Below, piece after piece: positions 13,455-56,765 of a stretch of DNA of 64,000 bases (the first letter of the stretch is position 1; each line of letters starts with the position of its first letter). This stretch comes from Planctomycetota bacterium. Its GTDB lineage: Bacteria; Planctomycetota; JAJSAM01; JAJVHW01. A program made the position numbers and the translations under genes. The DNA lies in assembly GCA_022072415.1 (NCBI GenBank), contig JAJVHW010000063.1:12358-76357 (forward strand). Reading direction: 5' to 3'. The notes beneath the pieces were generated by a model. It was not told the origin of the DNA. It worked only from the letters and a program-made list of their open reading frames with translations, and ran no database searches.

Positions 13455-13626
13455 GTGGGGCAGCACCCGGGAGCCGCGACGACGATCACCCTGCCGTTCC
13501 GCGAGGACGCGTCCGCCGCTCTGCGCCGCTCGCCGGAGGCGTTCGCAGCGGAGATGCGACTCGCCACGATCGACCGGTGCCGACAGGGTGTCGTCGCCCG
13601 GGGACGCGCGGCGTTGCTGGACCGGC
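13455..13626 (+). pseudogene. Possible truncated UPF0175-type antitoxin fragment
   Basis: ITLPFREDASAALRRSPEAFAAEMRLATIDRCRQGVVARGRAALL resembles the first half of UPF0175 proteins. High GC3 is lost after about 13626, where many A/T third positions appear. No partner toxin is visible. Confidence 0.25.
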
Positions 13627-23355: not shown

Positions 23356-23435
23356 CGGCACGCGTCCTCGCCGGGCGCGCTTGCCCGGCGAATTCGTGCG
23401 CATCGTCGGCGCGCGGGCGGAGTTAGGCTCCGCCG

Positions 23436-24923: not shown

Positions 24924-24926
24924 CGT

Positions 24927-25829: not shown

Positions 25830-25874
25830 GGCACGACGCTACGCCCCGCCCGCCGCGCGGCCGAAATAGGAGGC

Positions 25875-29001: not shown

Positions 29002-29051
29002 GGAACGCGCATCGTCGCGCGGGGGCGGCCCGCGGCGGGTAGGATTTCGAC

Positions 29052-29669
29052 GTGCAGCCCGCCGCCCCGCGCACTGTCTGCCGCCGAACCGCGCTCTCGC
29101 GGGCACTCCGGGGCGCGTGCCCGGCGTGCGGTGGGTCCCGCGTGTTCCCGGGAGGGGACGCGCCGCCGCCCGGCGCGTCGGCCGCATCGCGCGCGTGGCT
29201 CCGGCTCGCCGCGGCGTTCCGCCACGCGTCCGCGTGTCCCGCGTGCGGATGGAAGTTCGACCGCGGACCCGGCCACTGGGTGGGCGGGAACGAGATCAAC
29301 CTGCTCGTCACGTACCCCGTGTCGGTCGCCGCGTTCGCGGCTCCCGCCGTCGCGATCGGCCCGAGCTTCTGGACGGCCGCGGTCGGCGGCGTCGTCGCGC
29401 TGCTGCTCGGATTCGCCGTGCACCGGCCGTCGCGGTGCCTCTTCTTCGCGATGGACTACCTGGTCGACCCCGACGACGCATCGCCGTCCGGTCCGCCGGG
29501 CGGCTTCGACAGCGACGCGCCGCCGCCGCGCCGCGACCCGCCGCCGCCGGGAGGAGTCCGCATCGCGCTCCCGATCCCGACGCCCGCGCCGGCGGGCGAC
29601 GTGGAGCGGGTCCGCATCCCTGCGCCATCCGCGCCGCCGGAGCCCGTTCCCGGCGGCCGGTCCTTCTGA
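29052..29669 (+). CDS. DUF983-like zinc-ribbon membrane protein with a Pro-rich tail
   Basis: Two CPACG motifs (CPACGGSRVF ... CPACGWKFDRGPG) are followed by two TM segments, as in DUF983. The C-terminus is Pro-rich. Confidence 0.5.
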   Translation: MQPAAPRTVCRRTALSRALRGACPACGGSRVFPGGDAPPPGASAASRAWLRLAAAFRHASACPACGWKFDRGPGHWVGGNEINLLVTYPVSVAAFAAPAVAIGPSFWTAAVGGVVALLLGFAVHRPSRCLFFAMDYLVDPDDASPSGPPGGFDSDAPPPRRDPPPPGGVRIALPIPTPAPAGDVERVRIPAPSAPPEPVPGGRSF

Positions 29670-33960: not shown

Positions 33961-33969
33961 CCTTCGCAG

Positions 33970-40302: not shown

Positions 40303-40678
40303 CGGATGAGAAGTCCTCGCTGCCTGTCTTCCGTCGCGGCAGAAGGCAGGTTCTACCCGAGGGACGCGTCGGCTGAGTGACGTCCCTTCGAGGTCGGCCG
40401 ACGGCCACGGCGGGCCTGTCCTCGACGCGGCAGACGTCGATCTCGCCGCCCGCGACGAGGTCCCCGGCGCCGGCTCGAACTCCGCCTGCGCGACCTGCCG
40501 GCCGGGACGTGCTGCGACCGGACGAGAAGAGCGTGGCACGGAGTGGTTGCCGAGGCGCCTGGAACCGAGCGGGGTGTGCGACGCGGCTGATGCGACGCGA
40601 CGCACGCTGCACACGGGGCGGTCCGAGGTGTAGAACCGGTGCGCACGTTGGACGCCGGAGATCTCCGGGAGGCGAGTC

Positions 40679-43600: not shown

Positions 43601-44653
43601 GAAGCGCTCGAGCGCGCCGCGCGCGGGCTCGGGAAGGACCACGAGGAGACGCTCCTGACTTCGCTCGACCTCGGAGTGAACCTGCTCATGACCGAGCGGA
43701 AGGAGGAGTTCCTCGCGCTCATGTCGGAGTGGCTGCCCCGCGCGTGGAGGGTCCTCGGGCACGGGAACGAGATGGTCGTGCAGGTGACCGACGCCTTCGG
43801 CGCCGCGAGCGCGGAGGCCGATCGGCACGCCGATGCCGCGGCCGCCATGGAGTTCCTCGCCGCGGCGACCGCCGCCCAGCTCGGACCCGACGCACCCGAC
43901 GCGCTCCGCCTCGGCGGGAACGCGGCTACGAGCTGGTGGAAGGCCGGGCGGCTCGACAAGTCGCTCCCCATGTTCGAGAGCCTGGTGCCGCGGTTCCGCA
44001 GGGAGCTGGGCGAGTCGTCGCCCGAGTTCCTGATGGCGCTCGCGAATCTCGGCGTGAACCTCCGCGACGCGAAGCGGGCCGAGGAGTCGCTCGCGGCGTT
44101 CGAAGAGGCGACGCGGCTGGCGAAGGCCGCAGGCCCGGAGGCGGCGAGCGTGGTGTCGTTCGCGACGGGCGAGTACGCGCGGACGCTCGTCCGGCTCGGC
44201 CGGAAGGACGAGGCGGTCGCGCTCATGCAGGACGTCGTCGCGGGCGTGCGGAAGCGCGCGCCTGCGGGCGGATTGGCCCTGTCGAACGAGTTCGGCGCCG
44301 TGGCGCCCGTCCTGATCGACGCCGAGATGTGGGAGGTCGCGGAGCCCGTCCTCCGCGAGATGGTCGCGATCCGCGAGAAGCTGGCGCCCGGGCTCTGGAA
44401 CCACTGGAACGCGCGGGCGCTGCTCGGCGAGGCGCTGATGGGGCAGAAGCGGTGGGCCGAGGCGGAGCCCTTCGTCGTCTCCGGTTACGAGGGGCTCGCC
44501 GCGCGCGAGAACGCGATCCCCGGCGCCGCCGCGCACTGGCTCCCCGCGGCGCGGGAGCGCGTCCTCCGGTTCTACGCCGCGTGGGACGCAGCCGAGCCCG
44601 GGAAGGGGCACGACGTGAAGCTCGCGGAGTGGAAGGCGAAGCTCGGGAAGTGA
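40679..44653 (+). CDS. Ser/Thr protein kinase with a TM segment and a very long TPR region
   Basis: Kinase motifs GEGGFGTVWKA, VALKIIK, HRDLKPSNVLV, DFGIAK, GTLQYMSPEQ. A TM segment (PVAAAAAVAAALVAGIVGFAW) is followed by ~850 aa of TPR-like repeats. GGGAGG lies 6 nt upstream of the ATG. Confidence 0.9.
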   Translation: MSKDPARQIAESARTFTDPAERAAYLDRVCRGIARLRADVERHLAEMDAGGGGAAEPGPEPPADEPVVARPAAPPVTASESDTTDSARDSAAVDVGNEKAGDRIGRFLLVKELGEGGFGTVWKAEQVEPVKRTVALKIIKLGMDTEQVVARFEQERQALALMDHPNVARVIDAGATRTGRPYFVMDLVQGVPIGEFCDAERLTVEARLEVFAQVCAAVQHAHMKGIIHRDLKPSNVLVTKRDGKPHATVIDFGIAKATSSKLTDRSLVTEAYQVIGTLQYMSPEQSQASPDIDTRTDVYSLGIILYELLTGTTPYDTDTFQRAVLSDILRMIGDVDAPPPSAKITESRDALPSLADSRSIDVKRLASSLRGELDWIVLKSIEKDRARRYESAEAFAADIRRYLAGEEVSAAPPSATYRLRKFVRRNKGPVAAAAAVAAALVAGIVGFAWQAGVAKHERDEAVKARKAEEAERKRAQAVADFMDSTFKGLDPSADDATSGSLKERLVARLEQMSGEFSKLDADPLARARIEETFGSTMAGLGAVEKAAAAYEGALAIRRRVLGEEANETEQTALSLAFMLRHAGRFDDAMQLVTGVRDRRLARGPLTDDQWIEIDEALGVIHGSAGRAADATPHVEAVVRRRQAKGGPDTEELLLALHNLGVNYRETGKVEDAVRVLADAHARRIALGGEASANTLLTANSLAVALAAAGRRDESAKLSESVRDRVARRYPPEHPLALHANCNYAASLVALGRVDDAVKLVEEQVARATARHGSEASVTVQVRWALVTVYAEAKRTKDALAILEEIVPQMTRVWGADHETVQRARDGLLRYSVEHGRDERARAILESELARLSADPGSGGADGKSAVRIRAELARNLVYTGKPDEALRKLTEMAPIVESVLGPKDSAYSAVLHDIGWVHFTAERPKEAIEALDRAWKAAVAAAGPDSEAAIRSHHALGSAHWLAQDFPKAVAILSEALERAARGLGKDHEETLLTSLDLGVNLLMTERKEEFLALMSEWLPRAWRVLGHGNEMVVQVTDAFGAASAEADRHADAAAAMEFLAAATAAQLGPDAPDALRLGGNAATSWWKAGRLDKSLPMFESLVPRFRRELGESSPEFLMALANLGVNLRDAKRAEESLAAFEEATRLAKAAGPEAASVVSFATGEYARTLVRLGRKDEAVALMQDVVAGVRKRAPAGGLALSNEFGAVAPVLIDAEMWEVAEPVLREMVAIREKLAPGLWNHWNARALLGEALMGQKRWAEAEPFVVSGYEGLAARENAIPGAAAHWLPAARERVLRFYAAWDAAEPGKGHDVKLAEWKAKLGK

Positions 44654-44714
44654 CGGCGCGGCCGGACTGCTGTTGACTCCGCCGCCGCCGCAGGCGGACC
44701 ATGGGCCCATCGCA

Positions 44715-44738
44715 TCCGCGCGGGGGGGCCCGCGCGGA
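44715..44738 (+). terminator. Perfect 10-bp GC hairpin (tccgcgcggg-gggg-cccgcgcgga). Either a terminator of the kinase gene or a 5'-UTR structure of the next gene.
   Basis: Read directly. It lies 62 nt after the kinase stop and ends 2 nt before the GGAAGGGAG Shine-Dalgarno sequence of the TrpB2 gene. No U-tract follows. Confidence 0.4.
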
Positions 44739-44754
44739 GCGGAAGGGAGCCGAC

Positions 44755-46125
44755 ATGGCCGCGCGGAACAACTTCATGCTCGACGAGAGCCGGGTGCCGA
44801 AGGCCTGGTACAACATCAACGCCGACATGCCCGTCGCGCGCGAGCCGGTGCTCCACCCGGGCACCATGAAGCCGGTGACGCCGGACTTCCTGAGCGTGAT
44901 GTTCCCCATGAGCATCCTGCAGCAGGAGATGTCGGCCGAGCGCTGGGTCGAGATCCCCGAGCCCGTGCGCGAGGCGTACCGCCTCTGGCGCCCGACGCCG
45001 CTGATCCGCGCGGTGCGCCTCGAGAAGGCGCTCGACACGCCGGCGCACATCTACTTCAAGTACGAGGGCGTGTCGCCCGTCGGGTCGCACAAGCCGAACA
45101 CCGCGGTCGCGCAGGTCTTCTTCAACAAGGAGGCCGGGTCGAAGGCGCTCGTCACCGAGACCGGCGCCGGCCAGTGGGGCTCCGCCATGGCGATGGCGTG
45201 CGCCTTCTACGACATGCCGTGCGAGATCTTCATGGTGAAGTGCAGCTTCGACCAGAAGCCGTACCGGCGCATGATCATCGAGAACTACGGAGCGACCGTG
45301 TACTCGAGCCCGACCGTCCGCACGTACGCCGGCCGCGCCGAACGCGAGCGGAATCCGGACTCGGACGGCGTGCTCGGGCTCGCGATCTCCGAGGCGATGG
45401 AGACCGTGGCCACGAGCGGCGGCCTGAAGAAGTACGCGCCGGGCTCGTGCCTCAACTACGTGCTGATGCACCAGACGGTGATCGGCATCGAGGCGCTCGA
45501 GCAGATGGAGATGGCCGGCGAGTACCCGGACATGGTGATCGGCTGCGCCGGAGGCGGGTCGAGCTTCGGCGGGATCGCGTACCCGTTCGTCCACCGCAAC
45601 CTGACGCAGGGGAAGAAGACGCGGATCATCGCGGTCGAGCCCGCGTCGTGCCCGTCGATGACGAAGGGCCGCTACGCCTTCGACTACGCCGACCTCGCGT
45701 GCAGCGGGCCCATCGTGAAGATGCACACGCTCGGGCACTCGTTCATCCCGCCGGGCATCCACGCGGGCGGGATGCGCTACCACGGCATGGCGCCGAGCGT
45801 CAGCGCGCTCGTCCACAACGGGGACATCGAGGCGCGGGCGGTCGGGGAGCTCGAGACGTTCGCCGCGGCGGTGCAGTTCGCGCGGACGCAGGGGATCATC
45901 CCGGCGCCGGAGAGCGCGCACGCGATCCGCGTGGCGATCGACGAGGCGCTCGAGTGCAAGCGGCGCGGGGAGAAGAAGGTGATCGTCTTCAACCTGACGG
46001 GCCACGGGCACTTCGACATGGAAGCGTACGACGACTACCACAACGGGCGGATCCACGAGACGGAGCTGTCGGACACGGACCTCCAGGCCGCGCTGGCGCA
46101 GTTGCCGCTCGTGCCGTCGGAGTAG
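44755..46125 (+). CDS. TrpB2-type tryptophan-synthase-beta-like PLP enzyme
   Basis: IYFKYEGVSPVGSHKPN (PLP lysine), TETGAGQWGSAMA, GCAGGGSSFGG. Length and N-terminus (NFMLDESRVPKAWYN) are typical of TrpB2. The start is at the second ATG, which has an SD. No trpA lies nearby. Confidence 0.9.
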   Translation: MAARNNFMLDESRVPKAWYNINADMPVAREPVLHPGTMKPVTPDFLSVMFPMSILQQEMSAERWVEIPEPVREAYRLWRPTPLIRAVRLEKALDTPAHIYFKYEGVSPVGSHKPNTAVAQVFFNKEAGSKALVTETGAGQWGSAMAMACAFYDMPCEIFMVKCSFDQKPYRRMIIENYGATVYSSPTVRTYAGRAERERNPDSDGVLGLAISEAMETVATSGGLKKYAPGSCLNYVLMHQTVIGIEALEQMEMAGEYPDMVIGCAGGGSSFGGIAYPFVHRNLTQGKKTRIIAVEPASCPSMTKGRYAFDYADLACSGPIVKMHTLGHSFIPPGIHAGGMRYHGMAPSVSALVHNGDIEARAVGELETFAAAVQFARTQGIIPAPESAHAIRVAIDEALECKRRGEKKVIVFNLTGHGHFDMEAYDDYHNGRIHETELSDTDLQAALAQLPLVPSE

Positions 46126-46143
46126 CGGACGGGACGAGAGCAT

Positions 46144-46180
46144 CCGGAGCGGACGGCGCGCTTCACGCCGTCCGCTCCGG
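46144..46180. terminator. Perfect 15-bp inverted repeat with a 7-nt loop between convergent genes, likely a bidirectional terminator
   Basis: ccggagcggacggcg (46144..46158), loop cgcttca, then cgccgtccgctccgg (46166..46180). It sits between stops at 46125 (+) and 46190 (-). No U-tract on either side. Confidence 0.6.
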
Positions 46181-46189
46181 CGGAGGAGA

Positions 46190-46654
46190 CTACTTCTTCT
46201 TCTTCGCCGGCTTCTTCGCCGCGGGCTTCTTCGTCGGCGTGTACTTCGGCGGCGTGATGTTGTTCCAGATGTCGCGGTAGACCTTCCACTCGCCGGTCGG
46301 CTGGCGGCGGTAGACGAGGATCCCCTTGCAGTTCCAGTGGATCGTCTTGCCCTTGCCGCTGCGCGGGATGTCCGTCGCGATGTCGTGCCCCTCGTCGAAG
46401 CCCCACTCGCCGCAGACGTGGTTCGCCTTGATGATCTTCGTCCAGTGGGTCTTGTACTCGGCGAAGTAGCCCGCGACGGCGGCGCGGAGCTGCTTCCAGC
46501 CCACGGTCTGCGGCGCGTCCGGCGGCATCTGCGCGGCCTCCGGGTCGTACATCGCCATCACGAGGTCGGTGTCGTTCGAGTTGATCGCCGCCTCGTACGC
46601 CTTGTGGGCGGCTTCGAGGCCGGGATCGAGGACCGGCTTCATCTTCTTCGCCAT
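46190..46654 (-). CDS. NTF2-like (SnoaL/DUF4440-type) protein with a Lys-rich C-terminal tail
   Basis: AINSNDTDLVMAMYDPEAAQMPPD ... GKTIHWNCKGILVYRRQPTGEWKVYRDIWN follows the NTF2-like pattern. The tail is PPKYTPTKKPAAKKPAKKKK. GGAGGG lies 7 nt upstream of the ATG. Confidence 0.65.
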   Translation of the reverse strand: MAKKMKPVLDPGLEAAHKAYEAAINSNDTDLVMAMYDPEAAQMPPDAPQTVGWKQLRAAVAGYFAEYKTHWTKIIKANHVCGEWGFDEGHDIATDIPRSGKGKTIHWNCKGILVYRRQPTGEWKVYRDIWNNITPPKYTPTKKPAAKKPAKKKK

Positions 46655-46724
46655 GAGAGAGACCCTCCGTTCTTGGGAAGGGAGGATGCTACGTGGGCCG
46701 CGAGCGGCGGCGGATGCCCAAAGT

Positions 46725-49700
46725 TCAGAGAGACGCGAGAAGCGACCGCGCCTCGGTCACGTCCTTCGTCCCCGCGCCCTCGGTGAACCACGCGCACACC
46801 GGCTCGAGCACCTCGCGGGCGCCCGCCGCGTCGCCGCGGTCCCGGAGCAGCTCCGCGAGCGTCGTGGCGGCGCGGAGCTCCCAGGACTTCGTCCCGTGCC
46901 GCCGCGCGGTGTCCACGGCCGCGCGGAGCTGCGCCTCGCCCTCGGCCGTCCGCCCCTGCCGCGAGAGCACCCAGCCCTTCAGCCGCAGGATCTCCGGGAG
47001 CCAGATCCGTTCCTGGTACGCCGGGCGCTCGATCTGCTCGAGGCACTCCTCGATGAGCCCCGCCGCGCCCGCGAGGTCGCCCTGCATGGCCGTCGCCTGC
47101 GCGAGCGCCGACTTCAGGAAGGGGACGCGCACGCGTCCGCCGACGCCCGTCCACGCGTCGATCGTGCGGCGCAGGTCCGCCGCCGCTTCGCGGACGCGCC
47201 CGGAGTGGAGCTTCTCGAACGCCGCGAGCTGCGGGATCGACACCTGGTACATGAAGGCGATGCCCTGGTCGCGCGCCATGCGGTCGAGGTCCTCGACGCG
47301 CTTGCGCAGCGGCTCCGCCTCGCGGCGGTACGCCCATGCGTAGGACCCGAACGTGAGCGACCAGACGAGGTTGAACGCGTGGCCGACCTTCCGCGCGTGC
47401 GCCTCCGCGCCGCGGCTGACCTCGAGCGCCGTGTCGGGGCGGCCCTCCATCCAGATCCACTGGTGCGAGTACACCTCGACGAAGTTCCGGAGGTCGTGGC
47501 CCGTGAGCCGGATCCACCGCTCGGCGCGCGACGCGTCGTAGAGCGAGAGCACGCGGTCGGCGTGCGCGCGCGCCTTCGGGAGGTCGGCGAGGAAGAAGTT
47601 CGACACCATCGCGGCCGCGGGGCCGAACAGGCGGAGGTCCGGATCGTCGGCCGCGGCGCACGCGGCGAGGAGCTCGTCCGCGTAGGGCTGCGAGTCGGCG
47701 ATGCGGCCCTGCGTGATCGTGTTGGTCCACATCCACCAGAGCCCGAGGATGTGCTGCTGCGCGTTGCCGCGTCCGCGGGCGAGCCGCAGGATCGCCTCGG
47801 TGTTGACGCCGATCTCCTGCGCCGCCCAACCGCGGAGCCCCGCGTGCGCCGCGTTGAGCTGCTCGCGGATCGAGAGCTCGAGCGCGTCGCGGTCGCCCGA
47901 GGGGGGCACCTGGCCGATCAGGCGGAGCGCCGCCGAGAGGTGGGCCACCGCTTCCTGCAGCGCGACGCGCGCGATCGCGAGGGTTCCCGCCTGCCGCCAG
48001 AGCGGGATCGCCGAGTCCACGTTCCCGGCCTGCGTGTGGTGGTGCGCGACGCGTTCGGGGCGCCCGGTGACCTGCGCCGCGAACGTCGTCTCGAGCGCGT
48101 GGGCGAGCTGCGCGTGGAGCTGCTGGCGGCGGCTCTTCAGGAGGAGGTCGTAGGCCGCGTCCTGCACCAGCGCGTGCTTGAAGGTGTAGACGGCGTCCGG
48201 CGCCTCGCCGCGGCGGGTGATGAGACCGGACTCGAGGAGCCGCGCGAGCCCCGCGTCGAGGTCGCCGCCGCGGAAGGACGACACCGCGGCGAGGAGGTCG
48301 TGCGGGAACTCGCGGCCGATGCACGCGCCGAGCTGCGCGATCTCCTTCACCGCGCCGAGGCGGTCGAGGCGGGCGGCGAGCGAGTCCTTGAGCGACGTGG
48401 GCACGGCCAGCGTCGGGAGCGGCGCGTCGAGCGTCCACCGCCCGTCCTTCAGCGAGAGGAGGCCCGACTCGAGCACGGACTTCGTGAGCTCCTCGACGAA
48501 GAGCGGCACGCCGTCGGTGTGCGACACGATGTGCGCGAGCACCTCGGGCGGCAGTTCGCGCCCGCCGGTCACGCCGGCCACGATCGCGGCGACGCTTCCC
48601 CTCTCGAGGCGCGAGAGCCCGATCGTGCTCACGTGCGACTGTCCGCTCCACGGGACCGCGTACTCGGGGCGGTGCGTCGCGAGCACCATCACCGGAAGGT
48701 CCCGGATGCGCGGCACGAGCGCGTCGAGGAGCTCCTGGCTCGTCGGGTCGAGCCAGTGGAGGTCCTCGAAGACGACGAGGACGGGTTCCGTGCGCGCGCG
48801 GCCGACGACCTGCGCGGCGAGCGCCTCGAGCGTGCGCTCCTTCCGCTTCTGCGGCGGGAGCTGGATCGGCGGATACCCGTCCGTCGGGAGCGAGAGGAGC
48901 GCGGCGAGGAACGGCGCCGCCGCGGCGACCTGGGCCGGAGTCCCGACGAGCGACGCCTCGAGCTTCGCGAGCCGCTGCGCGGGGGTGTCGTCGCGCGCGA
49001 AACCGGCCGCCGTCTCGCACTGCTCGACGAACGGGTAGAGCGCCGAGTGCAGGTGGTAGGGCGAGCACTGGTAGCGGAGCTCCGCGTGCGGCTCGACGAT
49101 ACGCTCGCGGAGCCCGTGGGACAGGCGCGACTTCCCGATCCCGGCCTCGCCGCCGACGCAGACGACCTGGCCCTCGCCGTCCTTCGCGCGGCGCCAGCGG
49201 TCGTGGAGGAGCGTGATCTCCTCCTCGCGGCCGATCATGCCTGCAAGGTCGCCTCCGGCCTGCGCCGCGTCGAACCGTCCGCCGGTGCGGCGGACTCCGT
49301 CCACGCGGAAGACGGACACCGGATCCGCGAACCCCTTCAGGCGGTGCTCGCCGAGGTCGGACAGCGCGAACGCGTTGCGGACGAGGCGCCGCGTGGAGGG
49401 GCCGATCACGACCTCGTCGGTCCCGGCGAGCGCCTGGAGCCGTGCGGCGAGGTTCGGCGCCTCGCCGACCGCGAGACGCGCCTCCGTGGTCCCGCCTTCG
49501 GACGCGTCGCCCACGACGACGGCGCCGGTGGCGAGCCCGATCCGCACCGCGAGCGGCCGTGCCGCGCGGATCGTCTTCACCGCCTGCACCATCTCGAGCG
49601 CCGCGCGCACGCCGCGCTCGGCGTTGTCCTCGTGCGCCGCCGGCCAGCCGAAGTAGACCATCAGCCCGTCGCCGAGGTACTGCGCGACGTGCCCGTCGTA

Positions 49701-50096
49701 GCGCGTCACCACGTCGCCGCAGGCCTTGCGGTACTTCTGGATCAGGTCGCGGAGCTCCTCGGGGTCGAGTTCCGCCGCGAGCGCGGTGGAACCGACGAGG
49801 TCGCAGAACATCACGGTGAGCTGGCGGCGCTCGCCGACGGGCTGCACCGCGGCGGTGTCCGGCGCGGACGGCGCGGCGGGGGCCGCCGACTTCGGAGCGC
49901 GGAGCGCCTCGATCGCGACCGCGAGGCGGCGGCGGGGGCCGATCGGAAGCCCGAGGCGGTCGAGGTCCGCGTCGGTCAGGTGCGGGAGGTCCTCGAGCGT
50001 GATCTCGTTGTCCGCGAACACGGCGGCGTGCTTCTCGAGCCCCGCCTTCTGCAGCCACGCGGCCAGTCTGCCGTCGCCGTCGCCACCGTCGCTCAC
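46725..50096 (-). CDS. SAM (sterile alpha motif) domain / class III adenylate-guanylate cyclase / AAA-STAND ATPase / TPR multidomain protein
   Basis: SAM-like N-terminus: LAAWLQKAGLEKHAAVFADNEITLEDLPHLTDADLDRLGLPIGPRRRL. Cyclase: RRQLTVMFCDLVGST, GDGLMVYFG, RIGLATGAVVVGD, GEAPNLAARLQ. P-loop GEAGIGKS. Long TPR-like C-terminus. The GTG start overlaps the upstream stop (GTGA at 50093..50096). Confidence 0.9.
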   Translation of the reverse strand: MSDGGDGDGRLAAWLQKAGLEKHAAVFADNEITLEDLPHLTDADLDRLGLPIGPRRRLAVAIEALRAPKSAAPAAPSAPDTAAVQPVGERRQLTVMFCDLVGSTALAAELDPEELRDLIQKYRKACGDVVTRYDGHVAQYLGDGLMVYFGWPAAHEDNAERGVRAALEMVQAVKTIRAARPLAVRIGLATGAVVVGDASEGGTTEARLAVGEAPNLAARLQALAGTDEVVIGPSTRRLVRNAFALSDLGEHRLKGFADPVSVFRVDGVRRTGGRFDAAQAGGDLAGMIGREEEITLLHDRWRRAKDGEGQVVCVGGEAGIGKSRLSHGLRERIVEPHAELRYQCSPYHLHSALYPFVEQCETAAGFARDDTPAQRLAKLEASLVGTPAQVAAAAPFLAALLSLPTDGYPPIQLPPQKRKERTLEALAAQVVGRARTEPVLVVFEDLHWLDPTSQELLDALVPRIRDLPVMVLATHRPEYAVPWSGQSHVSTIGLSRLERGSVAAIVAGVTGGRELPPEVLAHIVSHTDGVPLFVEELTKSVLESGLLSLKDGRWTLDAPLPTLAVPTSLKDSLAARLDRLGAVKEIAQLGACIGREFPHDLLAAVSSFRGGDLDAGLARLLESGLITRRGEAPDAVYTFKHALVQDAAYDLLLKSRRQQLHAQLAHALETTFAAQVTGRPERVAHHHTQAGNVDSAIPLWRQAGTLAIARVALQEAVAHLSAALRLIGQVPPSGDRDALELSIREQLNAAHAGLRGWAAQEIGVNTEAILRLARGRGNAQQHILGLWWMWTNTITQGRIADSQPYADELLAACAAADDPDLRLFGPAAAMVSNFFLADLPKARAHADRVLSLYDASRAERWIRLTGHDLRNFVEVYSHQWIWMEGRPDTALEVSRGAEAHARKVGHAFNLVWSLTFGSYAWAYRREAEPLRKRVEDLDRMARDQGIAFMYQVSIPQLAAFEKLHSGRVREAAADLRRTIDAWTGVGGRVRVPFLKSALAQATAMQGDLAGAAGLIEECLEQIERPAYQERIWLPEILRLKGWVLSRQGRTAEGEAQLRAAVDTARRHGTKSWELRAATTLAELLRDRGDAAGAREVLEPVCAWFTEGAGTKDVTEARSLLASL

Positions 50097-51535
50097 GGGC
50101 CGAGCCTAGCCGAGGCGGCGGTCGCGGCGCTTCGATTCGCGCCGGCCACGAGGAGTCCGCGTCCGGCGAGCCACTCGACGAGCGCGAACGCCGCGCGCGA
50201 AGGCATCCGCGACGCCCACTGCTGCGCGAGGGCGAGGGGCGCGGCGTCGCCCCGGACGGAGCGGAGGAGCGGCGCGAGCTCGTGGCCCGCGAGGAACGCG
50301 ACCGGCTCGTCGAGCGCGGGATGCGAGACGGCGGCGCGCGAGGAGACGAAGTCGGCGTCGAGGCAGGGGATCTCGGGGAACGAGCACTCGGAGGAGACGG
50401 CGAGTTCGGCGTGCGACGACCAGTCGACCGGAACGCGATGCGGCTCTTCGAGCGGAGCCGTCGCGGCGCGCGCCGTCCAGAACGGACCCGTCCGGCCCGC
50501 CGCGGCATAGTGCGATCCGGCCCACGCCGCGTGACGGTCGTACGCCGAGAGCAGCGCGCTCCGATGGAACGACTCCGCGAGACCGGAGCGCTCCGGGCGG
50601 CGAAGGAGCGTGTTCACGACGACCGCGCCGGACACCGCGGACTGGATCGCCCGCTGCACGCCGCTCGAGGCGAGCGGGTCGAGGGCGAGCGCGGCGTCGC
50701 CCACGCGGATGTGGTGCGTCGAGACCGGATCGCCGGCGAGCCGCGGCGTCGCGTCGGACGCGCGCACCGGACCGTCCTGCACGAGACCTTCGCAGCCTTC
50801 GAAGAGGCGCGAACCGCTCATCAGCGCGCGGAAGCGGTCCTCGGGCGACGTTCCGCGCGGCGCGGCGTCCCTGTCGGCGAAGACGAGCGTGTTGTAGGTG
50901 CCGTCGGGGATCGGCACGCCCCAGCGCCAGCCGTGCTCTGCCGCCTCGATGCGCGGCGCGTCGGGAAGCCGCGCTCCGCGCCAGTACGCGAAGAGCGCGA
51001 CGGTGGGGGCGCCCTCGCGGAGCGGCGCGACGGACGTCGGCGACGACCGCCCGCCCGCGAACGCGACGAAGCGCGCGGAGATTTCGGTGCGACCGCCGGC
51101 ATGGTCCGCGGCGACGCGCCATCCGCAGTCGGCTCGCGTCGGGGCCGGGGCCGGGGCCCTCGCCGCCGCCGGCTGGAGCACGCGCACTCCGCACGACCGC
51201 GCATGGTCGAGCAGCAGGGCGTCGAACCGCCCGCGGTCGACGAGGAGGCCGCCGTCGCCCGACGGCGCGTCGCGGCGGACGGGAGACGACGTCCACTCGA
51301 CGTCCACGCGCGGCGCGGCCGGGAACCCGGCGGCCTCGACCGCGGCGCGGGCGCCCGATGCCTCGAGGAGCGGGAGCACTCCGGGCGTGAGCGACTCGCC
51401 GACGTGGCGGCGCGGAAAGCCGTCGCGCTCGACGAGGCACACGTCGTGCCCGAGCTGCGCGAGGCGCGCCGCGAGCGTGGCGCCCGCGGGGCCGCCGCCG
51501 ATCACCACGACGTCTGCGCGGACTTCCTCCGTCAT
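50093..51535 (-). CDS. FAD-dependent oxidoreductase of the LodB / flavin-halogenase-like class with a C-terminal PqqD-like extension
   Basis: Start at MTEEVRAD (ATG ending at 51535). Dinucleotide fold VVVIGGGPAGATLAARLAQLGHDVCLVE. GWRWGVPIP (WxWxIP-like) and GDAALALDPLASSGV. The last ~110 aa (…VAFLAGHELAPLLRSV…ALVEWLAGRGLLV) resemble a PqqD/RRE winged helix. Confidence 0.75.
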   Translation of the reverse strand: MTEEVRADVVVIGGGPAGATLAARLAQLGHDVCLVERDGFPRRHVGESLTPGVLPLLEASGARAAVEAAGFPAAPRVDVEWTSSPVRRDAPSGDGGLLVDRGRFDALLLDHARSCGVRVLQPAAARAPAPAPTRADCGWRVAADHAGGRTEISARFVAFAGGRSSPTSVAPLREGAPTVALFAYWRGARLPDAPRIEAAEHGWRWGVPIPDGTYNTLVFADRDAAPRGTSPEDRFRALMSGSRLFEGCEGLVQDGPVRASDATPRLAGDPVSTHHIRVGDAALALDPLASSGVQRAIQSAVSGAVVVNTLLRRPERSGLAESFHRSALLSAYDRHAAWAGSHYAAAGRTGPFWTARAATAPLEEPHRVPVDWSSHAELAVSSECSFPEIPCLDADFVSSRAAVSHPALDEPVAFLAGHELAPLLRSVRGDAAPLALAQQWASRMPSRAAFALVEWLAGRGLLVAGANRSAATAASARLGP

Positions 51536-51542
51536 CGGCGGC

Positions 51543-52922
51543 TCAGCCCGTCCCGATGCGCTCCGCCGCCGGCGCCGCCTCCTCGAACCGGCGGCGCGGC
51601 AGCCGCAGGTAGACCTCGAGGCAGTGGTGGAGCCAGCCGCGGATGTAGTCGCACGCGGGGCGCCCGCGACGGATCGCCTCGTGGTGGCAGCCGCCGCCGC
51701 ACATGTAGCGCGCCCAGCAGCTCGCGCACGGCTCCTGGCGGTGGACGTGGCGGTCGGTGAGCCACGCGATCTGGCGGCCGCGGTCCACGCCGCCCGCGAC
51801 GCTTCCCATCGCGCCGCCCGAGTCGCCGACGAACCGGTGGCACGCCGACAGCTCTCCGTCGGCCGACACGCCGAGGTACCCCGCCCCCGCGCCGCATGGA
51901 TACGGCCGGTGCGTGCCCTTCTCGATCTCGCGGAGCGCATTGACGAGGTTCGCGAACGGGAAGCGCTCGCCGCGGGCGGTGCGCCGCTCGTACTCGCGGC
52001 CGCATCCGATCATCTCGCCGAGCATCGTCTCGAGGTCGGCCGCCTGCATCTCGCCGTTCCCGCCGGAGGACGCGAGCATCGGCGAGAACCCGACGCTGTA
52101 GAATCCCTCCGCGACGAACTCGCGGAGCGTCTCGCGCAGACCGAGGTTCCGCGGCGTGACGGTGACGCGCGCCGAGACCTGCATCTTCCGCTGCCGCGCG
52201 AGGAGCGGCCGCACGTTCGCGAGGATCCGGTCGTAGCTCCCGCGCCCCCGGCGGTCGGGGCGGAGCAGGTCGTGGACCGCCCGCGGACCGTCGAGGCTGA
52301 CCGTCACGGCGAACCCGTGCTCCTCGAAGAAGTCGCCGTCGTCCGCGGTGAGCAGCGTGCCGTTCGTGGTGATCGAGAACGAGACGTTCACGCCGCGCCG
52401 CTCTCCCAGCTCCTTCGCGTGGAGCGTCGCCGCGCGGAGCACGTCGCGCGCGACGAGCGGCTCGCCGCCGAGGAACGCGAGCGTGGTCCGCGCGCCGGGC
52501 TCCGCGCGGCCGACGAGCATCTCGACCGAGCGGAGCGCCGTCTCGACCGGCATGCTCTTCGCCGGGCCGCCGAAGTCGCCCTGCTGCGCGTAGCAGTAGC
52601 CGCAGCCGAGGTTGCACTTCTGCGCGACGGCGAGCGAGAGCGCGTGGACCGGCGGCGGGTCGAGCGGCGTGTCGTCGATCCGCGGCGGGCCCGCGAGCCC
52701 GGCGGCGGCGAGCACGGCGCCGATCTCCTCGCCCGTCGTCGCGGCGCGGAGCCGCGCGACGAGCGCCGGGTCCGCGTCGAAGAGCTGCGAGCCGTCGGCC
52801 GCGAGGAGGCTCCACCCGGACGCCGCGCGGAGAAGGTGGAAGCGCGGGTCCCGCGGGGCCGACGCCTCCATGCACCTGCGCGCCTCGGCGCGGAGGTCCT
52901 CCTCCTGCGCGGCCGCCGTCAC
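51543..52922 (-). CDS. Radical SAM / SPASM-domain enzyme
   Basis: CNLGCGYCY (Cys codons at 52614..52616, 52602..52604 and 52593..52595), GGEPL, SITTNGTLL. The C-terminal Cys-rich SPASM region is YPCGAG...CHRF...CASCWARYMCGGGCHHE. I take the GTG at 52922, which overlaps the upstream stop (GTGA) and has GAGG upstream. An alternative ATG lies at 52871. Confidence 0.85.
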   Translation of the reverse strand: MTAAAQEEDLRAEARRCMEASAPRDPRFHLLRAASGWSLLAADGSQLFDADPALVARLRAATTGEEIGAVLAAAGLAGPPRIDDTPLDPPPVHALSLAVAQKCNLGCGYCYAQQGDFGGPAKSMPVETALRSVEMLVGRAEPGARTTLAFLGGEPLVARDVLRAATLHAKELGERRGVNVSFSITTNGTLLTADDGDFFEEHGFAVTVSLDGPRAVHDLLRPDRRGRGSYDRILANVRPLLARQRKMQVSARVTVTPRNLGLRETLREFVAEGFYSVGFSPMLASSGGNGEMQAADLETMLGEMIGCGREYERRTARGERFPFANLVNALREIEKGTHRPYPCGAGAGYLGVSADGELSACHRFVGDSGGAMGSVAGGVDRGRQIAWLTDRHVHRQEPCASCWARYMCGGGCHHEAIRRGRPACDYIRGWLHHCLEVYLRLPRRRFEEAAPAAERIGTG

Positions 52923-55222
52923 TTCGCCTCGCCGGGCGCGTCGCGTCCGCGGAGCTGCACGCGGAGCCACTTCTCCCAGTCGTGGAAGAGCCGGTCGTAG
53001 TCCACGAGCCGCGCGTCCATGTAGTCGTCCGGCACGTACTTGCCCGACCGCTCGATCTGCATCCAGTTGTCGCCGGTGCTGCGGCCTTCGCGCGTGACCT
53101 CGACGTTCACGAAGTCGGGCCGCGCCGACGCCCAGTAGTAGCAGGAGCACTCGCGGTAGTCGTTCTGCCACGGCGAGCAGAGCCCCTGCGTGAGCTCTCC
53201 CGGCTGCGCGAGCGCGCGCGAGATCACGACCGTGCCCGGCTCGAAGAACGGTCGCACGGTCAGCTCGACGCTGATGCTCGTCTTCTCGTTCCAGGGAGTC
53301 GGGACGTACCACTCCTCGGCGGCGCTGAAGTCGCAGACGACCTTCTTGCCGACGCTCTTCCAGAGCAGGTGCGCGAGCGCGTTCGACCACTCGAGTGGCG
53401 CGAGCCCGTGCGGGTTCCCCTCGTAGGGGACGGTCGCGGAGTCGTCCGGATCGAGCGTGTTCGGGCCGCGCATCACCGCGGTCGTGGGGATCCCCCCGAT
53501 CCGCTGCAGGCGGTGGCGGTGGAGACGCTTCAGCGCCGGGCGGTCGGACTCGACGTCCACCACCAGGCTGTCGTACTCGCGGAGCACGAGCCCCTCGAGC
53601 ATCCGGCGCCAGACCGCGCGGAAGTCCACTTCGAGCCCCGGGCAGCAGTTGGAGATCGACGTCTCGATCCGGGAGCTGACGGGGTTCCCCGCGGCGGCGT
53701 AGTGGAGCTGCGCGCTGCGGTTCCGCGGCGTGAGCGCGGGGGCGGCGGGCGCCTTCGGCTCCGCGGACGAGGTCGGATCGATCGGCCCCTCGAAGGGCTG
53801 CGCCCGCGCGGCCTTGCCGATCGTGTCGATCATGCGGTAGGTGAGCGCGAGATAGTTGTTGTCGCCGCCGATCATGAGCGCCGGCATCTTGCGGCGCCCG
53901 GCGTCGGTGTAGTCGGCCGCCTCCTCGGGCCGCCGGAGCAGCCGTGCGAACCACGGCGCGGCGCCGCTCCGGAGCGCCGTGTAGACCTGCTGGTGGAGCG
54001 CGAGCACCGCCGCCGTGTCGGCCGTCTCCGGCGACATGATGGGCCGGCCGGGCCGCTGCGTGTCGGCCGCCTCCTCGTAGGGCATCGTGTCGAACAGCAG
54101 CGCGGGGCGGCCGTCCACGTCGTTCCCGTTCATGACCTCGACGTTGAGGAAGCGCACGGTCTCGAACGCGCGGCGGACGATGTCCTCGGCGCGCGCGCGC
54201 GTGACCTCGGGCGGTTCGTCGGCGGGCACCTCGGGGCCGAAGAGGACCTGGTCGAGGTCGTCGGCGAGCGTCCGCACGAAGAGCGAATCGGGGATCACCA
54301 TGGGCGGACCCGACGTGACGCGCGCCGCCGCGGAGAGCCCCTTTCCGCGCAGCCGCACCTCGACGATCCCGTCGCACGTGTCGTCGAGGAACCCGCGGCT
54401 CTTCGCCGCGTTGCCGTAGAGCCACGGCGGCGCCGGCGGGACGATCGCGAAGAGCGACGGGGGAAGCGTGTCGTTCCAGTACTCGCGCGGCTTGCCGGGG
54501 AACTCGTCGCTGTCGATGGCCGGCGGGACCTCGAAGCCGGGCCAATTGCCCTTGCCGTAGACGCGGAGTTCCGGCGGCGGGACGTACTGCCCCGGATCGT
54601 CGAACTCGACGGGCTTCTTCGGACCGTAGATGAGCCCCGTCGCGGGCGTGAAGCGGAGGCGCAGCCCGGGGAAGCGCTCGTTCGGGCGGATGAACCGCAC
54701 GCTGCCGAAGCCGACCTTGCCGTCCTTCACGAAGTGCGGGCAATGCCCGTCGAGCGCGACCGGATCGTGGTGGCGGAACCAGCCCGTCTTCGCGGTGACG
54801 GTGTCCTCCTCGTCTCCCGTGCGGCGCGCGACCTTGCGGTTGGCGACGTGGACGCTCCACTCGACGTCCGCGAGAGACAGCCCGTTCTCGTCGAGCAGAT
54901 CCTCCGTGAGCGGGACCAGATCGCCGTCCGGCTGCGAACCCGCCGCCGGATCGAGGACCGCGAACACCTCGAGGAACGGCGCCACGCGGCGGAACTTCCC
55001 GTCGTCCTTGAACGCGATCTCCGCGGGCACGAACGACTCGCGGATCTCGCCGGTCGCGTCGTCCACGACGAGCGTCTCCGCGGGGACGATCCGGCGGAAC
55101 CCGGTCGGGTCCGCGGGGTCGTCCTCGAGCGTGTAGTTGTCCATCATCCGGGGCGACGAGCCCTGCCGCCCGATCGCCAGAGGCGGGAGGATGCGGAGTT
55201 CGCGGATCCTGCGGGCCTTCAT
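52919..55222 (-). CDS. LodA-like protein (homologue of cysteine-tryptophylquinone L-lysine epsilon-oxidase / glycine oxidase GoxA family)
   Basis: Start MKARRIRELRILPPLAIGRQGSS (compare LodA HPSIGVARLGN). VEWSVHVANRKVA (compare IEWTVHLANKKAA). FLDDTCDGIVEV (compare WYDDISDGSVTC). ISNCCPGLEVDF (compare IGNCVGLPMCPGIEMTW). LCSPWQNDYRECSCYYWASARPD (compare ACPWQADFFNC...YWWPPQSP). The comparison uses the Marinomonas LodA sequence as I remember it. ATGA overlap with the upstream gene. Confidence 0.75.
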   Translation of the reverse strand: MKARRIRELRILPPLAIGRQGSSPRMMDNYTLEDDPADPTGFRRIVPAETLVVDDATGEIRESFVPAEIAFKDDGKFRRVAPFLEVFAVLDPAAGSQPDGDLVPLTEDLLDENGLSLADVEWSVHVANRKVARRTGDEEDTVTAKTGWFRHHDPVALDGHCPHFVKDGKVGFGSVRFIRPNERFPGLRLRFTPATGLIYGPKKPVEFDDPGQYVPPPELRVYGKGNWPGFEVPPAIDSDEFPGKPREYWNDTLPPSLFAIVPPAPPWLYGNAAKSRGFLDDTCDGIVEVRLRGKGLSAAARVTSGPPMVIPDSLFVRTLADDLDQVLFGPEVPADEPPEVTRARAEDIVRRAFETVRFLNVEVMNGNDVDGRPALLFDTMPYEEAADTQRPGRPIMSPETADTAAVLALHQQVYTALRSGAAPWFARLLRRPEEAADYTDAGRRKMPALMIGGDNNYLALTYRMIDTIGKAARAQPFEGPIDPTSSAEPKAPAAPALTPRNRSAQLHYAAAGNPVSSRIETSISNCCPGLEVDFRAVWRRMLEGLVLREYDSLVVDVESDRPALKRLHRHRLQRIGGIPTTAVMRGPNTLDPDDSATVPYEGNPHGLAPLEWSNALAHLLWKSVGKKVVCDFSAAEEWYVPTPWNEKTSISVELTVRPFFEPGTVVISRALAQPGELTQGLCSPWQNDYRECSCYYWASARPDFVNVEVTREGRSTGDNWMQIERSGKYVPDDYMDARLVDYDRLFHDWEKWLRVQLRGRDAPGEAK

Positions 55223-56673
55223 CGGCGCACCCCCTCGCGGCCGGCTCCGAGGCCGGCGAGCACACGGTCGATCCACTCGATCCCCTGCGAGTCCACGGCC
55301 TGCATCACGGTCAGCGCGCGCGCCGAGTCCGGGGCGCGGTCGGCGCGGAGGAGGTCGGCGCAGAGGGACGTCGATTCGCGGAGCAGCTCGCGGTGGAACA
55401 CCCAGCAGTCGGCGTCCGACTCGGGCAGCACGAGCGTGTACGGCATCTCGAACGGCGGCCCCGCGCGCCGCGGATCCGCGCGGTCCGCCGTGAGCGGCGA
55501 ACGCACGAGGATCCCCGCGCACGTCTTCATGTTGTACATCTCGCCGAAGATGCGGTGGAGCACCATGCCGCGCAGCCGCCGCGACGCGGCGCCCGAGTCG
55601 CCGCCGGAGAGGCGGAACCAGAACGTCATCCACATGAGCGCCATGCGGTAGCGCAGGTTGAAGAGCTGCGCCCACGAGCGCGAGGTCTCGGACTCGATCC
55701 ACGAGTGGCGAGGCGACCGGCGCAGGTCCGGGTTCGCGGTGGGGTTCGCGGCCACGTCGCGCGCGTACGCCCACGGCTTCCGCGCCGCGTCGCGCGCCTC
55801 GATGCCGCGCCAGATCTCGGCGAAGCGGTCGAAGTGCGAGGGCTCGTCGCCGGAGTCGACGTTCGCCGCGGCGAGATGGGGCGCCTCGCCCTGCGCGGCG
55901 ATCTGGCGGAGCCCCGCGAGCGCGTCGGTGCGGGTCGCCATCTGCGCCACCACCACGGTCGCCTTGCGATCCTCCATGGCCACCGCGTCGCGGCCGTACG
56001 GCCGGCGGAGCTTCGGATCGAGGGAGGGATTCGCCAGCGTCGCCGCGGTCTCGGGCATGTACCCCTTGCCCCACTCGGCGAACGAGGCCTGCGCGCCGTA
56101 CGTTCCCGCGCGGAACGTCTCGTCGGGGATCCGCGACTCGTCGCCCACCAGTTCGATCAGCTTCTCGTAGAGCGTGCCGACGTGGTGGACGCGGCCCGCC
56201 GACTCCGGGACCTTCAGGCGCCGCACCACCGCGTTCGCCACCCGCACGTCCTCGGCCGAGGCGTCGGACGGCATCTCCGGGGGCATCTCCGCGTAGACGT
56301 AGCGCGTGATGGTCTCCATGTCGAGCGCGCGGAGCTGGAACGGGAACGGGAAGTAGTCCGTGTCGAACGGGATGTTGCGCCGGTTGAAGCAGACGGGTCC
56401 GCCGACGAGCGTGAGGAGATTCTGCACGCTGACGAGGTGCCCCATCTCCTCGCGGGCGATCGTGAGCAGCATGTCCTGCCACCGCCGGACCTCGTGCCGC
56501 TTCGCGGCCGGGACCTGGTCGCCGCCCAGCGAGTACGCCGCGAAGAGGTACTGGACGAGCTGCGCGTGCTCGATCTCGGCGCCGATGCCGAGGAGCATGC
56601 AGAGATAGTCGCGCCACGACATGCCCGGCGCCCTGTCCGGATGGGACGAGGGCTTGACTGCGGATCGTTTCAC
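55219..56673 (-). CDS. Ferritin-like domain protein (Pfam Ferritin-like family, the VioB/RebD-type domain)
   Basis: GAEIEHAQLVQYLFAAYSL ... LTIAREEMGHLVSVQNLLTLVGGP ... FPFPFQLRAL ... RYVYAEMP matches the two-helix E..H / EE..H signature of this family. GTG start at 56673, alternative ATG at 56622. Confidence 0.7.
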   Translation of the reverse strand: MKRSAVKPSSHPDRAPGMSWRDYLCMLLGIGAEIEHAQLVQYLFAAYSLGGDQVPAAKRHEVRRWQDMLLTIAREEMGHLVSVQNLLTLVGGPVCFNRRNIPFDTDYFPFPFQLRALDMETITRYVYAEMPPEMPSDASAEDVRVANAVVRRLKVPESAGRVHHVGTLYEKLIELVGDESRIPDETFRAGTYGAQASFAEWGKGYMPETAATLANPSLDPKLRRPYGRDAVAMEDRKATVVVAQMATRTDALAGLRQIAAQGEAPHLAAANVDSGDEPSHFDRFAEIWRGIEARDAARKPWAYARDVAANPTANPDLRRSPRHSWIESETSRSWAQLFNLRYRMALMWMTFWFRLSGGDSGAASRRLRGMVLHRIFGEMYNMKTCAGILVRSPLTADRADPRRAGPPFEMPYTLVLPESDADCWVFHRELLRESTSLCADLLRADRAPDSARALTVMQAVDSQGIEWIDRVLAGLGAGREGVRR

Positions 56674-56765
56674 GTGATGGCCCTCCCGGCCGCATCGAGG
56701 CAGAACCGCGAGTCTACGCAGGTCGCAGCGCCCGTTTCAAAGGGCGTTCCCAGTATCATCCGCGC

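Follow-up and report, generated by a model that had tools for sequence, protein, structure and literature searches.

A widespread gene cassette combining a LodA/GoxA-fold scaffold with QHNDH-type maturases and a ferritin-like partner: a putative CTQ quinoprotein system

Introduction

Two apparently unrelated biogenesis routes lead to cysteine tryptophylquinone (CTQ), one in quinohaemoprotein amine dehydrogenase (QHNDH) and one in LodA/GoxA. Which of the two, if either, would serve an operon that joins a LodA-like gene to genes for a ferritin-like protein, a radical S-adenosylmethionine (SAM)/SPASM enzyme and a flavoprotein? This question is raised by a locus in 64,000 nucleotides of DNA from a Planctomycetota bacterium (assembly GCA_022072415.1, contig JAJVHW010000063.1, positions 12,358 to 76,357), hereafter called the window. 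A preliminary description of the window had taken the locus for an undescribed four-component set of the LodA family. We found that the cassette is widespread and mixes a LodA/GoxA scaffold with QHNDH maturases and a ferritin-like partner, a combination that is apparently undescribed and suggests a new class of CTQ enzyme. Its scaffold is that of one CTQ lineage, its maturases are those of the other, and its predicted cofactor site resembles both. We consider it moderately probable that the cassette encodes an uncharacterised cytoplasmic CTQ-type quinoprotein complex with a LodA/GoxA-fold scaffold, QHNDH-type maturation and a ferritin-like partner.

Results and discussion

Organisation of the cassette

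Within the window, whose GC content is about 73%, a third-position GC of 0.91–0.97 picked out four consecutive genes on the minus strand. They encode a ferritin-like protein (55219..56673, 484 amino acids, aa), a LodA/GoxA-fold protein and putative quinoprotein (52919..55222, 767 aa), a QhpD-like radical SAM/SPASM enzyme (51543..52922, 459 aa) and a QhpG-type flavin adenine dinucleotide (FAD) monooxygenase (50093..51535, 480 aa). For the first gene an alternative ATG start at 56622 would yield 467 aa, the length of a near-identical database protein; the GTG start at 56673 has the better upstream sequence (GGGAGGG). Direct reading showed an ATGA overlap between the ferritin-like and 767-aa genes (55219..55222), a GTGA overlap between the 767-aa and radical SAM genes (52919..52922) and the sequence TGA-gccgccg-ATG, with a 7-nt gap (51536..51542), between the radical SAM and flavoprotein genes. 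Third-position GC, translations and junctions thus bear out the gene coordinates and couplings of the preliminary description. Its claim of a single translational unit holds for these junctions, but its four-gene extent was incomplete: a fifth gene absent from that description, encoding a cyclase-STAND protein (46725..50096, minus strand, 1123 aa), overlaps the flavoprotein stop codon with its GTG start (GTGA, 50093..50096). The four-gene arrangement is also conserved in relatives. Chance cannot account for it, since 83 loci of other genomes show the genes in this order.

A distant relative of LodA and GoxA

A 'hypothetical' protein of a Planctomycetes metagenome-assembled genome has the same sequence as the 767-aa protein. 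The latter has more than 1,100 homologues in several phyla, 55–62% identical, and every named one is likewise 'hypothetical'. Single-sequence searches of the PDB gave no match for this protein and none for the ferritin-like protein, so that profiles were needed. A 37-sequence family profile revealed four blocks, IxPPLxIxRxG, WxVxVANxK, DDxCDG and PGxLTxxxxPWQxDxxxC, that are shared by and collinear with GoxA (6BYW) and LodA (3WEU). Furthermore, a Foldseek search of the PDB with the AlphaFold2 model (pTM 0.81) returned only LodA (3WEU, 2YMW) and GoxA (6BYW and others), with E-values of 9e-9 to 1e-6 and a probability of 1.0, and the next match had an E-value of 0.35. Family membership was judged by the curated cutoffs of Pfam LodA_N and LodA_C and of NCBIfam NF038172 and NF038173, none of which the protein reached; it scored 20.6 bits for LodA_C (cutoff 25), 19 bits for LodA_N (cutoff 26.3) and 14.4 bits for NF038172 (cutoff 600). 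One stand-alone module of the family, P0264, barely exceeded the LodA_C cutoff (26.4 versus 25). Given a LodA/GoxA fold match together with sub-threshold curated scores, the protein is a distant LodA/GoxA-fold relative outside the curated family. In this sense the earlier label 'LodA-like' is right about the collinear blocks and the structural match to LodA and GoxA only, but does not extend to membership by any curated cutoff.

The maturase-like enzymes

The preliminary description had named the flavoprotein LodB-like. This was not confirmed, as the protein passed the NCBIfam QhpG model NF049967 (305.9 bits, cutoff 240), whereas it scored 96.9 bits against LodB and 88.8 bits against GoxB, far below the cutoff of 400 for each. 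Its best PDB match was QhpG ('peptidyl tryptophan dihydroxylase', 7CTQ, 7.9e-36), and all four orthologues scored from other loci, including the split clade described below, passed the QhpG cutoff with 273–326 bits. Since cassette flavoproteins exceed this cutoff in five of five cases without QHNDH subunit genes in the cassette, model-based annotation would probably name them QhpG.

The assignment of the middle gene as a radical SAM/SPASM enzyme was supported by Pfam and NCBIfam. The protein carries the CxxxCxxC motif at C103–C110 (52593..52616) and the SPASM cysteines C343, C361, C399, C402, C408, C412 and C424. QhpD is the thioether-forming maturase of QHNDH, and its model TIGR03906 was the best NCBIfam match at 303.7 bits, below the cutoff of 453, followed by the ranthipeptide maturase PapB (242 bits) and then the SCIFF maturase. 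Three orthologues, again including the split clade, showed the same QhpD-first ranking, with scores of 303.7–329 bits overall against that cutoff. The best PDB match was the thioether-forming CteB (5WGG, 5.9e-49). Because the flavoprotein is QhpG-type and the radical SAM enzyme closest to QhpD, their sequences argue that the accessory pair is the QHNDH maturation pair and not LodB plus an unrelated insert. A hidden precursor peptide for the radical SAM enzyme was considered and rejected: small-ORF (open reading frame) clustering across 124 cassettes gave only antisense or alternate-frame shadows of known genes. No conserved small ORF of 18–130 aa was found outside known genes in or around these cassettes, although very short or fast-evolving peptides could escape such a search.

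Predicted cofactor site

The core motif of the 767-aa protein, C682-x5-D688-x3-C692-x-C694-xx-W697-x5-D703 (53114..53179, minus strand), was present in all 123 copies from the window and the fetched loci, apart from the final Asp in one copy that is probably frameshifted or truncated; D688 and C692 were invariant in 123 of 123. LodA EPGDLTKRMACPWQADFFNC and GoxA TPGDLTKWMGIPWQSDAASC align with QPGELTQGLCSPWQNDYREC of the 767-aa protein, such that D688 falls on LodA D512 and C692 on the LodA CTQ cysteine C516, the GoxA counterpart being the PWQSDxxSC block. The CTQ residues of LodA are C516 and W581 (PMC4417212). Our LodA/GoxA comparison set consisted of partial proteins from a search seeded with PDB-derived fragments, in which the Cys–Trp region is covered. 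In the C-terminal fragments of this set, the CTQ tryptophan lies in a conserved 'P.P.WW[AP]..P' site. When the module was compared with them by hhalign, W697 (YYWASARPD) was placed on the second W (SWWAANLPV) with an E-value of 1.7e-4 and a probability of 50%, and a 10-residue deletion was needed. The distance from Cys to Trp is 15 residues in GoxA-like sequences, 65 in LodA (C516/W581) and 5 in C692/W697. Because D688 and C692 align with LodA/GoxA sites, and W697 tentatively does so, C692/W697, both within CSPWQNDYRECSCYYW, is the predicted CTQ pair.

This outcome bears on two motifs of the preliminary description, whose coordinates were correct (C526/C527 codons at 53642..53647, S683–W697 at 53132..53176). 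The Trp-containing stretch does hold the predicted tryptophan, on the strength of the hhalign match just given. The CTQ cysteine, in contrast, had been sought in NCCPGLE, and no alignment puts that motif on LodA D512/C516, which is where D688-x3-C692 aligns. NCCPGLE (N525–E531, 53630..53650, minus strand), in which C526 is invariant and C527 is not, is rather a candidate for another Cys-to-acidic crosslink. Likewise, C682, C694, E691 and D703, which are invariant in the cassette family and have no counterpart in GoxA/LodA, are candidate thioether residues. The predicted local distance difference test (pLDDT) score of the AlphaFold2 model dropped below 50 exactly at residues 525–530 and 680–707, the most conserved stretches of an otherwise well-predicted protein, as would be expected if the two motifs need crosslinks to fold.

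We also asked which curated families the module core recalls. Among the 18,950 models of NCBIfam, two families alone gave recurrent matches to a set of 20 diverse module cores, namely QhpC (19/20, best E 0.0024) and LodA (15/20, best E 0.0011), with the QhpC model NF037958 scoring about 14 bits (cutoff 50). In Pfam, QhpC (PF08992) matched 10 of the 20 cores, and a spurious Ig family (Ig_NUP210) matched 16 at similar E-values. The QhpC likeness is thus taken as a lead and not as proof; the Pfam matches were discarded as stand-alone evidence because the spurious family scored alike, the NCBIfam scan being cleaner. Taken together, the core appears to resemble the only CTQ carriers known, LodA and QhpC, in a weak but specific manner. 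In QhpC the residues follow the same order, C27-x5-D33-x3-C37-x3-C41-x-W43-x5-D49, with identical C-x5-D, D-x3-C and W-x5-D spacings. C27 is paired with D33 in a thioether, and a third thioether links Cys7 and Glu16. The CTQ pair Cys37/Trp43, the Cys41–Asp49 thioether and the catalytic Asp33 have been described for QhpC (PMC7876137).

The ferritin-like protein

The product of the first gene is indeed ferritin-like, matching Pfam PF12902 with 96.5 bits (cutoff 22.3). The best PDB folds for its AlphaFold2 model (pTM 0.85) were ferritin-like/diiron-carboxylate proteins, bacterioferritins and Mn catalase. Its invariant residues, numbered from M18, are E16, E18, E58, E59, H62, E112, E246, H263 and E361, some of which lie in an EEMGH (ExxH) helix; there are no invariant cysteines. 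A weak match to the VioB model TIGR04492 (20.1 bits, cutoff 1250) covered model positions ~596–945, i.e. the C-terminal third. VioB, RebD and StaD are imine-dimer (chromopyrrolic acid) synthases, and the domain acts there downstream of the amino-acid oxidases VioA, RebO and StaO. The possibility that the VioB N-terminal region corresponds to the LodA N-half was dropped, since no relation was detectable even at E-values up to 10. PF12902 genes have already been reported beside fungal lodA-like genes of group V (PMC4417212).

Split and fused forms

An exhaustive profile search returned 1,309 cluster representatives at E-values up to 1e-3, among which the parts of the 767-aa protein also occur apart. 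Its N-half (residues 1–476, 53795..55222, minus strand) is LodA_N-like, holds the blocks IxPPLxIxRxG, WxVxVANxK and DDxCDG in common with GoxA, and is found in related clades as a separate gene, e.g. P0147 (463 aa, profile positions 2–474), or fused to the ferritin-like protein. The C-terminal module, or C-module (residues ~498–767, 52922..53731, minus strand), is the proposed cofactor-bearing part and maturase substrate; it contains the four invariant cysteines C526, C682, C692 and C694 and stands alone in P0221 (214 aa) and P0264 (132 aa). Fusions of the ferritin-like protein with the LodA-like N-half were seen in P0162 (1039 aa), P0166, P0181 and P0204, while in P0214 the ferritin-like domain sits at the C-terminus of a full-length LodA-like protein, so that both orders are represented. 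Because such fusions exist, we argue that the ferritin-like protein is likely a physical partner of the LodA-like protein. A separate observation concerns P0189 (2062 aa), an unusual fusion in which residues 1496–1937 resemble the LodA N-half and come after Rieske_3 and molybdopterin-oxidoreductase domains.

In one metagenomic clade, the N-half and C-module are encoded by separate, overlapping genes, and the gene order is ferritin-like, N-half, C-module, radical SAM, flavoprotein. At locus L086 of this split clade, the N-half (8607..9995), C-module (9992..10804) and radical SAM (10801..12201) genes follow each other, the C-module gene overlapping the N-half gene by ATGA and the radical SAM gene by GTGA; at locus L104 the N-half and C-module are fused. 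The split clade lacks the cyclase gene. The core system is therefore ferritin-like protein, N-half, C-module, radical SAM enzyme and flavoprotein, and the C-module is an autonomous unit encoded beside the radical SAM gene.

Distribution and conservation

A pattern scan with one genome per species detected the cassette in at least 268 species genomes spread over many phyla, among them Acidobacteriota, Verrucomicrobiota, Gemmatimonadota, Alpha- and Gammaproteobacteria, Myxococcota and Planctomycetota. Cultured hosts include Bradyrhizobium iriomotense NBRC 102520, Taklimakanibacter albus, Rhodobaculum claviforme, Nitrincola sp. and Catenovulum sediminis. Partner genes were counted in the 83 loci fetched from other genomes. 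In 80 of them the ferritin-like gene immediately precedes the LodA-like gene. The radical SAM enzyme (78/83) is the most conserved partner, with more than 50% identity in nearly all loci and 60–72% in most; absences of either gene are mostly due to contig ends. The flavoprotein was found in 72 loci, the cyclase-STAND protein in 68, a SnoaL-like protein in 26 and a TrpB-like pyridoxal phosphate (PLP) enzyme in 18. A genuine exception is one Gemmatimonadetes locus (L070), where a gene for ~1000–1100 aa comes next instead of the maturases.

Proposed maturation

What has been observed is which genes are present, how they are related and conserved, in which split and fused forms they occur and how the residues align; from this we infer the chemical steps, the substrate and the formation of a complex as follows. 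The QhpD-like enzyme would install one or more Cys-to-Asp/Glu thioethers in the C-module, for which C682, C694 and C526 with D688, E691, D703 and E531 or D533 are candidates. The QhpG-type flavoprotein would then dihydroxylate W697, and C692 would link to the oxidised indole to give CTQ at the LodA/GoxA-homologous position. In other words, a LodA-type scaffold would have its cofactor made by QHNDH-type machinery. We favour the C-module as substrate because there is no conserved small ORF in or near the 124 cassettes, because the ferritin-like protein has no invariant cysteine and because the module gene, when split off, adjoins the radical SAM gene. The enzyme probably stays in the cytoplasm, since a signal peptide, a protease and an exporter are all missing from the system. 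The ferritin-like protein would be an obligate subunit, probably a dimetal redox partner, that may accept electrons from the reduced quinone or else act on an imine, aldehyde or H2O2 product. Both roles are speculative and are proposed by analogy with the related VioB/RebD/StaD domain, which acts after an amino-acid oxidase. In most lineages, the cyclase-STAND-TPR protein may couple the system to cyclic-nucleotide signalling.

More tentatively, we put forward as a possibility somewhat short of probable that the cassette represents a fourth tryptophylquinone class linking both CTQ lineages in evolution, in which a LodA fold bears a QhpC-like module caged by radical SAM thioethers, with CTQ made at C692/W697 by the QhpG-type flavoprotein and a dimetal, VioB-related ferritin-like subunit. 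The same cytoplasmic complex might deliver a tryptophan- or amine-derived product that feeds the STAND-type nucleotide cyclase.

Several observations weigh against the CTQ proposal. The quinone and the thioethers are predictions, and any substrate or role given for the ferritin-like protein and its partner is conjectural. The probability of the W697 alignment was only 50%, all core matches to LodA and QhpC stayed below curated thresholds (best E ~1e-3) and Ig_NUP210 scored as well as QhpC in Pfam. Foldseek TM-scores of the 767-aa model to LodA/GoxA were low (0.23–0.31). The radical SAM enzyme remained under the QhpD cutoff (304 versus 453) and its N-terminal substrate-binding region is divergent; moreover, radical SAM/SPASM maturases normally modify short peptides and not an internal segment of a 767-aa protein. 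At locus L070 (9995..12373 and downstream), ferritin-like and LodA-like genes occur without adjacent radical SAM, flavoprotein or cyclase genes. Finally, the four invariant cysteines could equally ligate metal.

Alternative explanations

This last point leads to the most serious rival, in which the Cys-rich site C526/C682/C692/C694 binds a metal or an iron–sulfur cluster and no CTQ is formed, the maturases act on a small molecule or another target, and the LodA-like and ferritin-like proteins are metalloenzymes. The invariant cysteines include a CxC pair, low AlphaFold2 confidence as seen at these loops also occurs at metal sites, the ferritin-like partner has conserved Glu and His residues, and the likeness to CTQ carriers is sub-threshold. 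Nevertheless, D688 and C692 align with the catalytic Asp and the CTQ cysteine of LodA/GoxA, and W697 aligns tentatively with the CTQ tryptophan. The flavoprotein belongs to the sole family known to hydroxylate peptidyl tryptophan for CTQ, the nearest relatives of the radical SAM enzyme all form protein or peptide thioethers, and the C-module gene, where split off, adjoins the radical SAM gene. We therefore regard a metal site without CTQ as unlikely.

Quite unlikely in our view is a cluster for a ribosomally synthesised and post-translationally modified peptide (RiPP) or a small molecule. Here an unrecognised precursor peptide would be the target of the QhpD/PapB-like enzyme and the flavoprotein; alternatively, the genes would produce a tryptophan- or indole-derived metabolite, and the LodA-like and VioB-domain proteins would serve in tailoring or in coupling to an oxidase. 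In and around the 124 cassettes no conserved small ORF was found, and the operon junctions are too tight for a precursor gene, even though the radical SAM enzyme scores well against ranthipeptide and SCIFF maturases and the cyclase protein resembles the TOMM-associated kinase/cyclase family. For a metabolite, one could invoke the PF12902 domain common to VioB and the TrpB-like (18/83) and SnoaL-like (26/83) genes; each of the two genes is absent from the majority of loci, however, and the VioB model score (20) falls far short of its cutoff (1250). The CTQ proposal would itself accommodate a small-molecule product made downstream of the quinoprotein.

Highly improbable is an ordinary LodA/GoxA-type oxidase with a LodB-type flavoprotein and the radical SAM and ferritin-like genes as unrelated passengers: LodB, GoxB and QhpG are homologous flavoproteins (PMC7876137) and PF12902 genes are known beside fungal lodA-like genes (PMC4417212), but the radical SAM gene is the most conserved partner (78/83 loci) and shares stop/start overlaps with its neighbours, the QhpG score is three times the LodB score, all LodA/GoxA thresholds were failed, and the cassette family has further invariant Cys, Asp and Glu residues of its own.

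If the CTQ proposal is true, the cassette would define a new, phylogenetically widespread class of quinoproteins and would provide a case in which the target of a radical SAM/SPASM maturase is a large enzyme. It would also explain why LodA-like and PF12902 genes travel together, and a shared origin of the CTQ sites would become testable.

Gene neighbourhood

The protein encoded by the fifth gene comprises, according to Pfam, a SAM domain, a class III nucleotide cyclase, an AAA_16 (STAND) ATPase and TPR repeats. It scored 531.7 bits against the TOMM kinase/cyclase model TIGR03903 (cutoff 705.75), with the match starting at model position 269, and the SAM domain takes the place of the N-terminal kinase of the TOMM family. 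Upstream of the first, ferritin-like gene, a sigma-70-like promoter candidate, TTGAAA-18-TAGACT (56711..56740, minus strand), was recognised by consensus match only; it was the sole promoter-like match within 45900..57000, where 0.2 would be expected by chance, and no terminator-like sites were found across the same interval.

Two accessory genes accompany the cassette in the subclade to which the window belongs. A small SnoaL/DUF4440-like protein (46190..46654, minus strand), assigned by Pfam, is also encoded at loci L001–L003. A TrpB-like PLP enzyme (44701..46125, plus strand) matched NF009057 with 677 bits (cutoff 366); as a neighbour, it hints, speculatively, at tryptophan or indole chemistry. 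Next to the latter, a 1339-aa Ser/Thr protein kinase with long TPR arrays (40634..44653, plus strand) gave a sub-threshold FxSxx-COOH-system TPR-like match of 214 bits. Together, this kinase and the cyclase-STAND protein span the domains of the TOMM kinase/cyclase fusion as separate genes. A defence system was also considered and rejected, as PADLOC indicated only generic viperin and Pycsar-cyclase domain similarity.

On the other side, a 1089-aa ORF (56766..60035, plus strand), whose third-position GC of 0.97 speaks strongly for coding, diverges from the operon. It had no match in Pfam, NCBIfam or PADLOC and was rejected as a member of the system because it is absent from all 83 other loci. 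Further flanking genes (11728..13485, minus strand; 33961..35733, plus strand; 23427..24923, plus strand; 27715..29295, minus strand) look like ordinary chromosome, their products being an XPB/ERCC3-like helicase, a DUF6880 protein, an M50 peptidase and serine hydroxymethyltransferase. Two ORFs that overlap on opposite strands, 24924..27479 (plus) and 24927..25838 (minus), have third-position GC values of 0.87 and 0.94. No QHNDH subunit genes were found among the scanned ORFs of the window.

Comparison with known systems

In a 2025 review, no more than three enzymes are named as containing CTQ, namely QHNDH, LodA and GoxA (PMC11951088). In the 2015 survey of LodA-like genes, which applied BLASTP at E <1e-10, two-gene units were described and PF12902 neighbours only in fungi (PMC4417212); the present family was missed because it is too divergent for that threshold. 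We found no description of the cassette in the literature searched, subscription-only papers being outside its coverage, and to this extent the novelty claimed in the preliminary description stands.

With PapB and the SCIFF maturase CteB, the cassette shares a radical SAM core joined to a twin-cluster SPASM domain. Ranthipeptide and sactipeptide systems differ from it, as the cassette contains no precursor peptide gene and the likely substrate is a protein module. With VioB, RebD and StaD, it has in common the homologous PF12902 domain, the genetic pairing of this domain with an amino-acid-oxidase-like enzyme and, near some loci, a TrpB-like gene. The ferritin-like protein, however, is ~470 aa long compared with ~1000 aa for VioB-type proteins, and only the PF12902 domain is common to both. 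Moreover, the oxidase partner in the cassette would be quinone-dependent, whereas VioA, RebO and StaO are FAD-dependent, and homologues of VioC, VioD and VioE or matching enzymes of the rebeccamycin pathway are absent from the cassette.

With QHNDH the cassette shares a monooxygenase of the QhpG family, above cutoff, and a radical SAM enzyme closest to QhpD. QhpC and the C-module have four cysteines each (invariant in the C-module), and in the split clade the module is, as in QHNDH, a separate polypeptide encoded beside the radical SAM gene. The systems differ in that genes for the dihaem protein QhpA, QhpB, the protease QhpE and the exporter QhpF were not found among cassette genes and neighbours in the window and at L001–L003, and that the cassette has no signal or leader peptide. 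Furthermore, the carrier is a 215–270-aa module or part of a 767-aa protein in place of the ~80–110-aa QhpC peptide, and scores against the QhpD and QhpC models lie under their cutoffs.

With LodA and GoxA of Marinomonas and Pseudoalteromonas, the 767-aa protein shares the fold and the collinear blocks, including the catalytic Asp and the CTQ cysteine. A homologous flavoprotein is encoded in the operon in both cases, but it is LodB or GoxB there and QhpG-type in the cassette. Unlike LodA and GoxA, the 767-aa protein ends ~70 residues past the core motif and adds the invariant residues C526, C682, C694, E691 and D703. The cassette is further distinguished by its obligate radical SAM/SPASM gene, a scaffold that can be split and an attached cyclase-STAND gene.

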